Source: Octopus vulgaris (Eukaryota). Taken from it: 64,000 nucleotides of DNA. Of the stretch, positions 15,964 to 64,000 are shown piece after piece. The position numbers were made by a program, and so were the translations under genes. The notes under the pieces were generated by a model that ran no database searches, was not told where the DNA came from, and saw nothing but the letters and a program-made list of their open reading frames with translations. The stretch spans positions 122,884,001 through 122,948,000 of the forward strand of contig OX597818.1 in assembly GCA_951406725.2 (NCBI GenBank). The letters are read 5' to 3'. The stretch's first letter is position 1. Each line of letters starts with the position of its first letter.

Positions 15964-16004
<41 letters not shown>

Positions 16005-16005
<1 letters not shown>

Positions 16006-17230
16006 GGAAAAAGGTGAAGGTAGAAAATGTTAAAATAACTTCATAAAAAAACATTTCAGTACCGGTTCCAGTCATTGAGACTTTTTCAACTCTAAGTATG
16101 GAAAACAATAAAATTTTGGAAAAATTTAATGAAAAGATTTTAAATGAATATTTGCATAGTATTCAAATGCAAGGGACATTTTCCTTGCTTCTGCATGTCT
16201 CTGTCTCTCTTGTTTACTCTTGTGGGTTCGAGGTGGTTGTGAATTCTTGGCAGAGGATGAGAAGAAGAAGAAAAAAGAAGAAGAAGAAGAGGAAGAGGAA
16301 GAAGGATGAAAAAGAGGAGGAGAAGAAGAATGTGGGAGTGCCATGATAGTAGTAAGTTGTTAAAGGGTCAAGGATATTAGCAGGGTGTCAAATGGATAGT
16401 AGTAGGATGTTAAATGGCATGAAGGTATAGAGAGACTTAAAGAATTCCAAGCACTTATAAATGAACTTGATGTAAACATTCAATTTACGATGGAATATAG
16501 TCATCAACAACTTCCTTTCCTCGACATCCTCATTAAGAAATCTAACAACTTAATAGAAACAGATGTATACTATAAGCCCACAGACTCCAAGCAATATCTA
16601 CCGTTCAACTCATTCCACCCCAGACACATTAGAATGAATATCCCCCTCAACCTAGCAAAAAGAATATGTACTATAGTTTCTAACGCAAGCACCAGCGACA
16701 CACGACTACATGAACTAAATGATACACACATCACCAGGAACTACCTACCTTCACTAATTGACATACGTTTTCAAAATGCCCTACAACTCAACATCCACGA
16801 ACTCAGACATCCAAAATTAAAAAGGGATTTACCACCAAAAGCTCTACCATACATCTCCACACACAACCCTCTTAACAATGAAGCCTTCGACACCATCCTT
16901 CAAAACATTCCCCTCCTAAAAGAGGACCACAGAATGAACTTAATCCTCCAAACACACTCCATCATATAAAGAAAGGGACAACCCAAATCTATGAAAAGTC
17001 TCCTAACACAAGCCCGAATACGCTCAACAACAACAAAGAAGACGTCAGTAAAAAAATGCAGAAGACCCAACTGCGGGATATGCGTCAATTTAATTGAGGG
17101 ATCAAAGTTCTCCTTCAAATAGGGACAACGTTTCACAGTGAAAAGCAGCTTCACATGTGCTTCGGAGAACCTGATATACGCACTAATCTACTCTGGGTGT
17201 CAAGAGAAATACATAGGCCAAACAAAAACA
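16005..17230 (+). mobile_element. Penelope-like retroelement fragment (RT thumb to GIY-YIG) with inverted 3' segment at its 5' side
   Basis: IQFTMEYSHQQLPFLDILI..DVYYKPTDSKQYL..HP; KCRRPNCGIC; NLIYALIYSGCQEKYIGQT. 16320-16430 is the reverse complement of the 3' region seen at ~29860. HHR motif at 16055-16096 (-). Confidence 0.9.
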
Positions 17231-29060: not shown

Positions 29061-30840
29061 AGGTAGAAAATGCTAAGATAATTTTATCACAATGAACATT
29101 TAAGTACTGCTTTCAATCTTGGCCATTTTTCAACTTAGAGTAAAGCATTAAAAAAAAATTAAATTGTGGAAATATTCAATGAAATGTTGTTTTTAAATAT
29201 TCCCATAATTTTCAAACTTCCATTGCTCTACATCCTCATTAAGAAATCCAACAACAAAATAGAAACAGATATATGCTATAAGCCCACGGACTCCAAGCAA
29301 TATCTACCGTTCAACTCATGCCACCTCAGACACACTAGAATGAGTATCCCCTTCAAACTAGCAAAAACGATTTGTACTATACTTCCTAATACAGATATCA
29401 AGGACACACGACTACAAGAACTAAAGGATACACTCATTACCAGGAACTACCCGCCATCACTAAATGATATAGTCTTTCAAAGTACCCCACAACTCAACAT
29501 CTACGAACTCAGATATCCCAAGTTAAAGAATGACGTACAACCAAAAGCCTTATCATACTTCTCCACACAGAACCCCCTTAACAATAAAGCCATCGACTTT
29601 ATGTTCCTCCAGAACATTCCCCTACTAGAAAGGAACCACAGAATGAATTTAACCCTCCAAATGCACACCATAAAGAGCAAAAGACAACCCAAATATATTA
29701 AAAGTTTCCTAACTCAAGCTGAAGTACACTCGATGACAACACTGAAGCCGTGAGTAAAAAATTTAGAAGACCTAACTGTTAGGTTATTCAGAACAATTCC
29801 AGTCACTGGTATTACAAACACAGCGGGTCCCTTTTAGGTCACATGAGCATTTAAGTGGATACCACCAACATCCTAGTACTGTCATACCACTCCCGTATTT
29901 TTCTTCTTCTTCTTTTTCTTCTTTTTTCTTCTTCTTTTTCTTATTTTTCTTCTTTTTTTTCTTCTTTTTCTTCTTCTTCTTCTTCTTCTTCTTCTTCTTC
30001 TTCTTCTTCTTCTTTTTTCTTCTTTTTTTTCTTCTTTTTATTCTTCTTCTTTTTCTTCCTCTTTTTCCTCTTCTTTTTCTTCTTCTCTTTTTCTTCTTCT
30101 TCTTCTTCTTCTTCTTCTTCTTCTTCTTCTTCTTCTTCTTCTTCTTCTTCTTCTTCTTCTTCTTCTTCTTCTTCTTCTTCTTCTTCTTCTTCTTCTTCTT
30201 CTTCTTCTTCTTGTTCTTCTTCTTCGTTTTCGTCGCCGCCGCCTCCTTCTCAGCCTCTGCTGTTAAACACCCAAAACCAATCTCCCTCGTCCATTGAATT
30301 AGCCAACTTATTTCCCTTAAGTAATGGTCATTCCCTTTCTCACCATCTCAGCTATCAATTTAATAGCCTTCATACAAACTAGCACAATTAACTACCATTC
30401 ACACATTTCACCCACAACACATTTCATACACACTAACTTAACAGACTAAAATTCTCATACTACCTACAATACCCTCCCCTCTTCCTTCTATTTTCCACCT
30501 CTACTACATTGACTCCCTGCAATTAATCCCGCACTTTTGATATTTATTTTCTCCTTTCACTTTTCCTAATCTGAATACCTCCCCTCCCACCTAATAAGTT
30601 AGGCTCTCCACAAAATCATTTCATCCTTGAACTTCCCTTTTTTTAACACCTCAAATGTAATATCTTCCTCTGAAGGCGGAGACTCGTCTCAGCCTATGAT
30701 AGGAACAAACTACAAACACTATTTCGTAGCACTGAGCCCCCCCCCACTGAAACAGCTGTTGTGTTTGTAATAACTTTCCCCAACCCCTTTATACATCCAA
30801 ATCATTTGTATTCTGTGTAAGTCATATTTAAGAACTTTAA
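29061..30840 (+). mobile_element. Penelope-like element fragment with inverted pLTR piece (HHR motif 29101-29137, -) and (TTC)n-rich 3' region
   Basis: ORF 29166-29753 (KIETDICYKPTDSKQYLPFNSCH..) is paralogous to the 16.5 kb copy. Same GGTAGAAAATG.TAA terminus. Confidence 0.85.
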
Positions 30841-60740: not shown

Positions 60741-60747
<7 letters not shown>

Positions 60748-62350
60748 AGTAAAAAGTGAAAAACTACAGAAGGCTTGTTTTAAAAGGTTAAAAAATATAT
60801 ATTTGAGTCATTACGTCAGAAGAATGTTATAAATTTTTTTCATACAGTGACATAGTTTTTGAAGAAATTACCGGTTTCGTGTTAACTTTTCAAATTTCTC
60901 AAAGCATTGTGTTATGACTTCGTTATGAAGTGTAAAGAGGAGTTCCAGGCAAGGGGAGGTAATAACTGATTTCTTCCAGTGTAAGGGAGATAATCGCTTT
61001 ATATTTCTTGCCTTTTTTACTTAATGGGATTAGTTTCTCTGTATAAGTATGTTAGAATGGTTAAGTTTGGGCTTATATTTTTCAATGAAGAATGTTTCCT
61101 TGTTTAGTCTAATTTGTGTTGGTGTTCCAATAGCACATTGATAAAATGGAAAGATTAAAAATTGTGGTAGTAGTTGCTTTGCGCATTTCTCAATATGCTC
61201 ACTAAAGGGTATCATTCTGTATTCTGGGAATGCAATTTGTTGTCGATGCAGTGTGCATCTACGTCTGAGTGATAGTCCCGTGGACCCCACGTAGTTTTGG
61301 TGGAAGCCCGAGCATCTTATGACATAAATTATGTTTTCAGAGGCACAAGTAAAATTAGATTTGATCTTGAATTTTTGTCCCTTTTTGAAGAGAAATTCTG
61401 ATCCTTCTAGAAGGTTTGGGCATGTTGCACAGTTTGGTCTATCACATTTTTTTACTTTTGCATCCGTAATTTCAGAAAGCAATTTTGCCTTTGTGAGAAT
61501 CTTTTTAAGTGATTTAGGTTGTTTGTAGCTTTTAATGATTTTATGTATGTTTAGAATTTCCTTTAATTTGGGGTCCTTATGAAGTATTGGTAAATTCTGG
61601 GTGATGTTGGTGAAGGCTTCTTTGTTTCTGGGGTTCTATGTGGATATGTAAGGCAGTATATTCGGGGAAGGTGTGTTGTTGTGTTGAACTTTTCTCAAAG
61701 TTTTTATGTCGATTTCTGTTGCACGTCTGATCCCATCCTATATGAGTTGAGCTGGGTAGTGTCTGTCAATTAGGGTGTTTTTGAGTTCTTGTAGTCTAAA
61801 GTTCCTGGTATTTTGTTCTGACACTATTGTGCATATCCTTCTTGCAAGGTTGAAAGGGATGTTTGTTTTAGTGTGTCTTGGGTGGCATGAATCAAAAAGT
61901 AGGTATTGTTTGGCGTCTGTGGCTTTGTAAAAAATGTCTGTTTCTATTTTAAGGTTAATTTTTTTAATTAGTATATCTAAGAATGGAAGCTCCTTTTGGT
62001 TGTATTCCATTGTGAACTGTATATTTGGGTTGCTGCTGTTCAATAGGTTTTTGAATTTTAGGAGTTTATCTGTGATTTCATTCCAGAGTATAAAACAATC
62101 GTCCAGGAATCGTTTCCAATTCTCTTTTATGTATTGAGAGAGGGGGCTTCCAAAGGTTGATAAAGATTCCTGGTAAATAATTATTTCCAGGTAGCCCATT
62201 GTTAGGTTCGCAATGACTGCTGCTGCCCTTGTACCCATAGCAATTCCGGATTTTTAACGGTAAAATGTATTGTCAAACATGAAGAAGTTATTATGTAGGA
62301 TGAATTCAACCGATTTAGTAATGAAATCTTTACTAATCCTTTTTGGTATT
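60741..62350 (-). mobile_element. Penelope-like retroelement, 5'-truncated (RT + GIY-YIG + 3' pLTR with HHR 60863-60899)
   Basis: GIAMGTRAA..ANLTMGYLE; WKRFLDDCF; LPFLDILI; KCDRPNCATC; IIYVIRCSG..NYVGST..R..H. Few disablements. Confidence 0.93.
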
Positions 62351-64000
62351 TGGTATTTCAAGGAAACTAATAATCTACGATTTTCAAGCCATTATACTGA
62401 TATCAACCGCTCACCCTCTCAAGAACTATCTCTCAATGTAATATATATATATACTTGCCTTAGGACTCTGTTTGAAACCTGGCCGCATGATGAAATAGAA
62501 TGGAAATCAAATGAAAGAAAAAATATAGTATAACATATACATACTCACATGTGTGCATATGTGAAGGTAAATAGATTTACAAAGGAAAGTAAAGGTCATT
62601 TAGCATAGATCAGGTGGAGATCAAATATATGTATCAACAACATTTGACTTAATCTATTTTACCCCAAATTACTCGTGCGTACAAGTACATTTGATCGTTT
62701 ATGACCACTCGATTTAAGAGACAGGGCAGAGATAAGTAATAAAGATGACTTTTTTATGAAGAAATATATATAAAGGTAACTTATAGTAGTCAGTACGGCT
62801 GACATGATAAAATTAGTATTTGGATGGTTCCTACAGTGTCGCTAAGCGTTGAACTATTTATTTGTAGGGCATTATGGAACAAATGCTGAATGGTAGATAA
62901 CACTGACGCAACATACAAAGGTACTTTTCCTTGCTTCCATAAGAAAAAAAACCTTTACAATTTCCGTAAAGTATCAACACGGTGTGTTTTACAAATATAT
63001 TCAAGAAATGTTTCTCTATTACCAGTTTTTGTTCAAAAAGCAGTTCTCAAGAACACATAAATTACACAACTATATTTTCCATGTATCATTATAAAGTTAG
63101 TTATTCCTCTTTAGAAAATATCACTCCAGCTTCGCACACTATAACTGGAAGTGGAACACACTACTTTTATTGAAAGCACCCATACGTAACTGTCGCAATC
63201 GCCTATTCAGTAAGGACATTCTACCTTATGAAGACATACTTTGTATTTGCGGATATTAACCAATCTGCGTGGCATCAAGGAAAGACAGCTTTAAGCAATC
63301 TACTCCGTTTTGTTCGAGATAAGAGAAAACTCTGCCTCTGTCTCACTTAATCTTGTAACTAAGTGACCAGAGAAATGATTTGCTCACCAGAACATGGAGT
63401 ATATTTGTAACAGAAGGTAGCAATTCGATTCATATTTGTGAGAGATTTAATTTAGTAATACGATTACGTTAATGTCTTATTGACTTGGTTACTCACATAG
63501 AGTTTTATATTATGTTTCACTTTGACGTAAGGTCATGAATTTTTTAGAGAAGAAATATATTTTATTGAAATGATTTTGATTGGCTATTGTTTTGAAGTCC
63601 CAGAGGAGTAAAAATAGTGAGACTCACAAGATTTGAATACATTATGTTCAATAGTGGTATAAATTGTCAAAAATGATTTATCAAACATTCTGTTGGTTCT
63701 ACCACACCACATTTCTCCGAACTTAAATAATTCTATTTAAAATTTAACTATTCGGAAAGTCTGCATTCTATTGTAAATTGGAGAATAATAGTCTATTTGG
63801 AAAGATGTCGTTAAAATCTTGGCTATAATAGTGCGTGGATGGAAAGAGAAGAGCAACGAGAGAACTATAGATAATTGCTGGAATTGATTTGCACACTAAG
63901 TAATCATTATCTCATTTCTTAAACTTGCCGCAAGTTAAGAGATATACGTTGGTAGATACTGTTTAACTATGCATAAATCTAAATTTCCCAGTTATGCTTC

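Follow-up and report, generated by a model that had tools for sequence, protein, structure and literature searches.

Does the UUGAAAA box found in a Penelope-like element (PLE) at this locus form the core of a selected hammerhead in which U3-A8 has taken the place of C3-G8, or is it a worn copy of the CUGANGA form? The window, meaning the whole analyzed stretch of 64,000 nucleotides, lies in a genome of 2.8 Gb. The first-pass annotation had read a hammerhead at 60899-60863 of the minus strand, on the coding strand 3′ of the GIY-YIG frame, and both sequence and place are confirmed letter for letter: from the GIY-YIG stop at 61030 to the motif there are 131 nt. The reading favored here, at a probability of about 0.75, is that the pLTR carries a fixed and inherited U3-A8 hammerhead, which likely cleaves itself weakly after GUA as an ACCGGU-paired dimer and is likely helped by a protein that the element itself encodes.

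The motif takes on the letters of the hammerhead core (U4 G5 A6 N7. A9, G12 A13 A14, A15.1-U16.1, H17, Table 1). A Watson-Crick pair between positions 3 and 8 is possible as U3-A8, and the canonical C3-G8 letters are absent. The helix III palindrome that dimer pairing calls for is present as ACCGGU, and the palindromes ACGCGU and ACAUGU occur in other U3-A8 elements of the genome. When a structure descriptor was run over both strands of the 64 kb, 60899-60863 (minus) was its sole match. In 100 shuffles of the window, 0.13 matches per window were obtained with a stem I of at least 3 bp, 0.01 with at least 6 bp, and 0.00 (n = 100) with a stem I of at least 6 bp together with the 6-nt palindrome. 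Folding energy lends no support to the hammerhead (z = -0.05 for the 47-nt site), and other folds are lower in energy than the hammerhead, with +0.3 versus an MFE of -5.4 kcal/mol for the monomer and -8.9 versus a cofold MFE of -17.1 kcal/mol for the dimer. Rfam scans of the window and its relatives gave no hammerhead at the gathering threshold among the matches listed (for the window 150 of 303, all microsatellite-type). C3-G8 retrozymes of the same genome likewise lack an Rfam hammerhead match. As Rfam misses both forms alike, the miss is not caused by the 3-8 swap, and the Rfam test is uninformative here because its C3-G8 controls fail too. Taken by its letters, the window motif is a likely self-cutting hammerhead whose cleavage is predicted.

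Table 1. Coordinates of the hammerheads, pLTRs and coding remnants in the window and in family H and related loci.
Feature	Position	Strand	Remark or basis
Inverted 5′ pLTR, family B copy; hammerhead about 16057-16095	15998..16270	-	A13G, weak stem I
RT-linker-EN remnant of family B copy	16415..17228	+	
Inverted 5′ pLTR, family B2 copy; decayed hammerhead 29101-29137	29064..29208	-	
RT thumb/linker remnant of family B2 copy	29215..29778	+	
pLTR sequence 3′ of predicted cut, into (TA)n tract	60741..60862	-	
Minimal type I hammerhead motif (family A)	60863..60899	-	Sequence and 190 exact 31-nt copies genome-wide
Stem I, 6 bp (7 counting a G.U)	60899-60894 / 60868-60863	-	Sequence
Core box positions 3-9, UUGAAAA	60887..60893	-	U3 = 60893, N7 = 60889, A8 = 60888
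Stem II, 2 bp (G10.1-C11.1, U-A) with 4-nt loop	60879..60886	-	
GAAA box 60878-60875; ACCGGU palindrome 60875-60870; A17 = 60869	60869..60878	-	Sequence
GUA triplet, predicted cut	between 60869 and 60868	-	Dimer model in the available part of PMC4209133
Linker with CX4CxxC motif and GIY-YIG endonuclease remnant	61030..61635	-	GIY-YIG E 0.0016, fails cut-off
5′-truncated RT remnant, three in-frame stops	61636..62351	-	96% nt to other family A copies
Family H loci L103-L118, for example	G000:C1:90095900-90102100		Sister to D
ORF1, 449 aa	L103:3080-4426	-	Without Pfam match
U UUU UUA heptamer region	L084:1280-1300		

The window copy is a dead, 5′-truncated insertion of a Neptune-like Penelope and runs out into a (TA)n tract near 60741. 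Longer relatives (L084, L104) have RVT_1 above the cut-off, with GIY-YIG just under it in L084, and through them the RT followed by a GIY-YIG endonuclease that defines EN+ Penelope-like elements is found. The pLTRs of this lineage are direct or inverted and may carry a tail. Neptune-type marks are present in the CX2-5CxxC linker and the insertion into (TA)n, and the longer relatives share the CX4CxxC linker, (TA)n targets, inverted 5′ copies and the optional tail. By these features the element appears Neptune-like, in a sense that takes Neptune and Nematis together. In the full-length family H copy L103, 207 nt separate the hammerhead from the ORF1 that follows it. ORF1 and the RT-EN frame overlap, and an in-frame U UUU UUA heptamer, shared by families H and C, lies in the overlap. 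This heptamer is what we take to be a likely -1 frameshift site. An ORF1 separated by a frameshift is noted for PLEs in a figure legend of Craig et al. 2021 (PMC8557442). At L103 the family H hammerhead is preceded on the same strand, at a distance of 96 nt, by one of family C (L103:4630-4760, minus), and a heterodimer of the two, both with ACCGGU, is conceivable. ORFs of other, distant PLE-type elements occur near fetched hammerheads at L101:1288-2355 (+) and L122:3628-4599 (-).

The same box had also been claimed for the two other RT-bearing copies of the window. The boxes do exist, at 16089-16083 and 29133-29127 of the minus strand; the RT remnants are on the plus strand, so the boxes lie in inverted 5′ pLTRs, antisense to the RT, and both motifs are decayed. 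The A13G of the 16 kb copy is found in 1 of 29 other family loci, the 29 kb copy has lost both its stem II pairing and its palindrome, and the structure descriptor rejects the two. A 4-bp UAAG/CUUA stem I was considered as the family state of the 29 kb copy and dropped, as the B2 majority differs. The 16 kb and 29 kb copies are 81% identical in the ORF at the nucleotide level and 71% identical to the 60 kb copy; as judged by sequence, these two are one lineage. Counting the three window copies as covariation events does not hold, as their U3-A8 is shared by descent.

The family state of the 3-8 pair was therefore sought genome-wide. A pLTR query gave 1,614 candidate genomic matches, of which 40 were scored. 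Among 30 fetched family loci, the window included, position 3 is U in 30/30 and position 8 is A in 29/30, with neither C3 nor G8 in any. The exact 31-nt family A pattern, left free at positions 3, 7 and 8, occurs at 190 sites, and the first 100 of these hold U3-A8 99 times and U3.G8 once. U3-A8 is thus the master state of the family and copy-specific decay is excluded: C3 is found neither in the 30 loci nor in the first 100 exact copies, and on this point the first-pass annotation was right. Contigs of four runs, with four other organism labels, cover the site, and positions 3 and 8 are unchanged among the matches listed.

For the genome as a whole, the 3-8 states were counted with a pattern of the core followed by N{6,20}GAAACCGGTA, where GAAACCGGTA is the common 3′ half. 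U3-A8 was found 6,742 times versus 26 in the control (family A counted twice), C3-G8 22 versus 11, C3.A8 98 versus 14 and U3.G8 222 versus 11. Outside family H, single changes amount to 1.2-1.5%, from which 1.3 double revertants are expected; 3 were observed (P = 0.14). C3-G8 copies within families B and C were accordingly rejected as covariation, since 3 are true revertants, as many as decay can account for, and the other 3 result from a shift of register. A 300:1 dominance of U3-A8 genome-wide was also discarded, as it holds only for the ACCGGUA class. With a broader descriptor requiring G10.1-C11.1, which yields pattern hits including decayed copies rather than curated ribozymes, U3-A8 reached 11,754 versus a control of 1,796 and C3-G8 4,592 versus 668. 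U3-A8 makes up ~72% of the hammerhead-pattern excess above control, which suggests, by pattern counts, that it is the commoner hammerhead form in this genome. Minimal hammerheads that combine C3-G8 with this ACCGGUA end are rare; those at L066, L071 and L080 have no PLE protein match nearby. A repeat at L246, L247, L261, L311 and L312 has a hammerhead-like core as C3-G8, U3.G8 and U3-A8 and no clear stem I. A metagenome scan gave a convincing U3-A8 minimal hammerhead in 1 of 120 loci listed and a PLE protein match in none of the 120; the one locus (L214) is an AT-rich 633-base contig with an 8-bp stem I and an ACCGGU palindrome.

Selection on the fold can be read from the PLE families A, D, H, B, C, B2, E and F, which were sorted by flank and stem II and are represented by a non-random sample of 4-32 copies each, hand-picked from listings. 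Pairing was scored in seven of them (A, D, B, C, B2, E, F), with H left out. In stem I, 31 of 35 positions are paired versus 18.6 for permuted 3′ strands, and in stem II 13 of 14 versus 7.7; either pairing total is matched by 4 of 5,040 permutations, which is not a probability, as the families are kin (A-D; B-C-B2). The stem I sequence differs between clades, with U-A versus G-C at 2.1-1.1. The 10.1-11.1 pair is G-C, A-U or U.U, the last being a tolerated mismatch according to the sections of PMC3088659 at hand. The second stem II pair is U-A in family A and C-G in its sister family D, while the two do not differ at any of the 29 positions outside stem II and their flanks agree at 72% and 84%. 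Position 7 is A, C or U across the families. Position 17 is A, C or U and never G in the fetched subfamilies, and three further A-clade subfamilies have C or U there, within NUH. This variation of the core follows the known tolerance pattern of hammerheads (PMC3088659, section 8). Stems I and II thus appear to be supported by covariation, with the caveat of kinship. The core is fixed while the stems covary and position 7 varies, which argues that the hammerhead fold is selected, as the first-pass annotation had held probable; the seven families over which this is seen are related.

In a protein tree of 32 copies, all from this genome, families A, D and H group together with 100% support. Every in-group branch but H usually has U3-A8, and some F copies have U3.G8. 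Read on this tree, the U3-A8 of this PLE lineage is evidently a single inherited event and the U3.G8 of H is derived.

A further switch is found in a tandem retrozyme of ~358 bp with 354 sites (loci L258, L260, L263-L282). The first 100 of these, counted by hand, comprise 44 C3-G8, 47 U3-A8, 9 C3.A8 and no U3.G8 sites, and its C3-G8 and U3-A8 monomers are 89% identical. No homology between this retrozyme and the PLE pLTRs was found, so its U3-A8 represents a second switch. The C3.A8 subfamily is arranged in tandem, as a trimer. A retrozyme tree of 37 of 53 units, with at most two per locus and several edge copies on long branches, places C3.A8 next to C3-G8 and away from U3-A8 under a poorly supported root; C3.A8 as an intermediate between C3-G8 and U3-A8 is not borne out by this tree with its poorly supported root. 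Arrays of this retrozyme often hold an inverted part, as PLE insertions do. A second tandem retrozyme (L303, L304; 360-363 bp) has a UUGAAAA core, a GGGG/CCCC stem II and an ACGCGU palindrome, and BLAST gave no match between it and the first.

Positions 3 and 8 do pair in hammerheads, as the earlier reading presumed and as is in print (PMC3884650 and PMC3088659, in the parts consulted). Its inference of a compensatory double change stands in that U3-A8 is a fixed family state; it falls short in that U3.G8 and C3.A8 states have been amplified as well. The clearest case is family H, with 107 exact sites. All 100 that were listed have U3.G8, and 99 of these 100 miss one A after GUA. Family H is the most homogeneous family sampled (97.3% pairwise identity), has near-intact ORFs, among them a 775-aa ORF in one copy, and its form is present in contigs of other runs. 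Among its first 100 sites, close pairs are inverted 28 times and direct once; with close pairs mostly inverted, most insertions would be unable to form a dimer in cis. It is possible that family H is a natural ribozyme knock-down. An A-clade subfamily (L313, L315-L317) combines U3-A8 with GUC, and three of its copies lack A1.1, with a geometry as in family H. As the same base is absent in this U3-A8/GUC subfamily, the hammerhead may accommodate an additional U ahead of position 3. The old family F (L112, L119-L122, L092, L093) holds U3-A8 copies and also U3.G8 copies, of which there appear to be more than decay would yield. The amplified single-change states weaken a strictly compensatory account, and the 3-8 pair appears to be no absolute requirement for spreading.

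In the proposed mechanism, U3-A8 would be an isosteric replacement of C3-G8, with a single origin in the PLE lineage, close to its base. It would have arisen separately in at least one retrozyme, probably via a tolerated single-change step, where a C7pG8 context would favor G8A. The monomer would be unable to close helix III, and two motifs would pair via ACCGGU, a scheme drawn from PMC4209133 and PMC11167929. The paired dimer would subsequently cut after GUA, slowly and probably aided by the element's protein. In elements in direct tandem, the motif has ORF1 207 nt downstream and the RT-EN stop about 130 nt upstream, so that cutting would trim read-through tandem transcripts to unit length. 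Genomic copies extend about 125 nt beyond the predicted cut site; as they continue past it, the reverse-transcribed RNA must have been uncut or re-ligated (circular) there.

This cleaving U3-A8 hammerhead has to be set against other readings of the same data. The view that UUGAAAA arose from CUGANGA by decay of individual copies, or that AT-rich DNA matches the motif by chance, would fit the folding z-score of about 0 and the decay of two of the three window copies, but it is hardly credible with U3-A8 in 99 of the first 100 exact family copies, with 6,742 U3-A8 versus 22 C3-G8 sites genome-wide in the GAAACCGGTA pattern, with three true C3-G8 revertants, in agreement with the 1.3 that single-site decay predicts (P = 0.14), and with the full structure in no shuffle. 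A different rival is adaptive tuning, in which the weaker pair slows cutting and spares RNA for reverse transcription, and several elements have converged on it. The template must indeed span the cut site, and U3-A8 is in the majority and recurs in unrelated elements. Yet the AT-rich context (34% GC in the window, 31% in the pLTR) and the CpG at 7-8 in the retrozyme explain this recurrence without any advantage, and C3-G8 families thrive in the same genome; tuning is quite unlikely.

More weight, while still improbable, falls to a hammerhead-shaped fold that is kept for a non-cutting role such as RNA dimerization or protein binding, or that is nearly dispensable, with U3-A8 as low-activity drift. 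Of the families sampled, H, with U3.G8 and the missing A, is the youngest and its ORFs are near-intact, and the C3.A8 retrozyme subfamily exists. Hammerhead mutants left PLE insertion in vitro unaffected, which there had no need for cleavage, and no RNA-seq ends were mapped at the hammerhead cut site, both in the accessible parts of PMC11167929. Naiad PLEs are without hammerheads in the part of PMC8557442 seen. The 5′ ends of family C copies show no clear pile-up at the cut site, as a hand count over the first 100 of 166 rows placed 6 of 26 loci within 2 nt of it versus ~4 under a uniform distribution. A non-cutting role is, however, at odds with the retention of G5, A6, A9, G12-A14, U16.1 and NUH alongside variable stems and a variable N7, a pattern typical of the catalytic core, and with the paired states of 91 of 100 retrozyme sites. 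The short-term spread of a family from one master copy is also no measure of long-term selection.

The U3-A8 swap itself is already published and the window site is an ordinary, not a new, instance of it. Of more interest, and outside the window, are the genome-wide U3-A8 majority and a natural allelic series at the 3-8 pair. Tentatively, and at less than even odds, a shift to U3-A8 has affected most hammerheads of this genome, across several unrelated mobile elements, and its 3-8 pairs make up a series of C-G, U-A, U.G and C.A, each in elements that have spread. If true, family H would be a natural ribozyme knock-down that is still transposing, and would give the first evidence from within a genome that PLEs can do without hammerhead cleavage for a short time. 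Descriptors built on CUGANGA only would overlook roughly 70% of the above-background hammerhead-pattern sites here. Cleavage rate can be compared with transposition success across sister families with different 3-8 pairs and different sequences next to the cut site. Within a partial coverage of the literature (including PMC6765202, PMC7151607 and PMC6155905), no report was found of U3-A8 as the majority form, nor of U3.G8 or C3.A8 families that have been amplified.

Among the closest known systems are the Cercyon hammerheads of Schistosoma mansoni PLEs: U3-A8 was given its own descriptor there, with about 1,300 hits, and a supplementary row of Cervera and de la Peña 2014 links a UUGAAAA box to a Schistosoma PLE (both from the available parts of PMC4209133, which also reports dimer cleavage of PLE hammerheads). 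The two are alike in type I topology, pLTR location, palindromic helix III and U3-A8 core. As far as that source goes, they differ in stem II (2-5 bp here versus 7-8), in the extra base between A9 and 10.1, which is absent here, and in the 6-nt palindrome and mostly GUA triplet found here. U3-A8 outnumbers C3-G8 in this genome, unlike the about 1,300 U3-A8 versus about 2,000 minimal motifs given there. A natural U3-A8 hammerhead is described as active in vitro in the portions at hand of Perreault et al. 2011 (PMC3088659), which has the same U3-A8 covariation, a 2-bp stem II, a U10.1.U11.1 mismatch and a palindromic weak stem III. Core variants are called rare examples in those portions, and amplified U3.G8 or C3.A8 families were not found in them.

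The 353-362 bp type I hammerhead tandem repeats fit the animal non-LTR retrozymes (PMC7229834; Li et al. 2026 preprint), and the mixed C3-G8, U3-A8 and C3.A8 subfamilies were not found in the available text of either. With the Neptune and Nematis PLEs (Craig et al. 2021, PMC8557442 and preprint, in part), the host element shares the CX2-5CxxC linker before GIY-YIG, the (TA)n targets, inverted 5′-truncated copies, an optional 30-40 bp tail and an ORF1 separated by a frameshift. Poseidon PAc of Anolis, as far as covered in the excerpts of Frangieh et al. 2024 (PMC11167929), likewise carries a pLTR hammerhead upstream of internal RT start sites. In that system cleavage is protein-assisted, and the 3-8 pair was tested by a swap that rescued it. 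The Poseidon PAc hammerhead is C3-G8 and overlaps the ORF start, whereas the one described here is U3-A8 and lies 207 nt upstream of ORF1.
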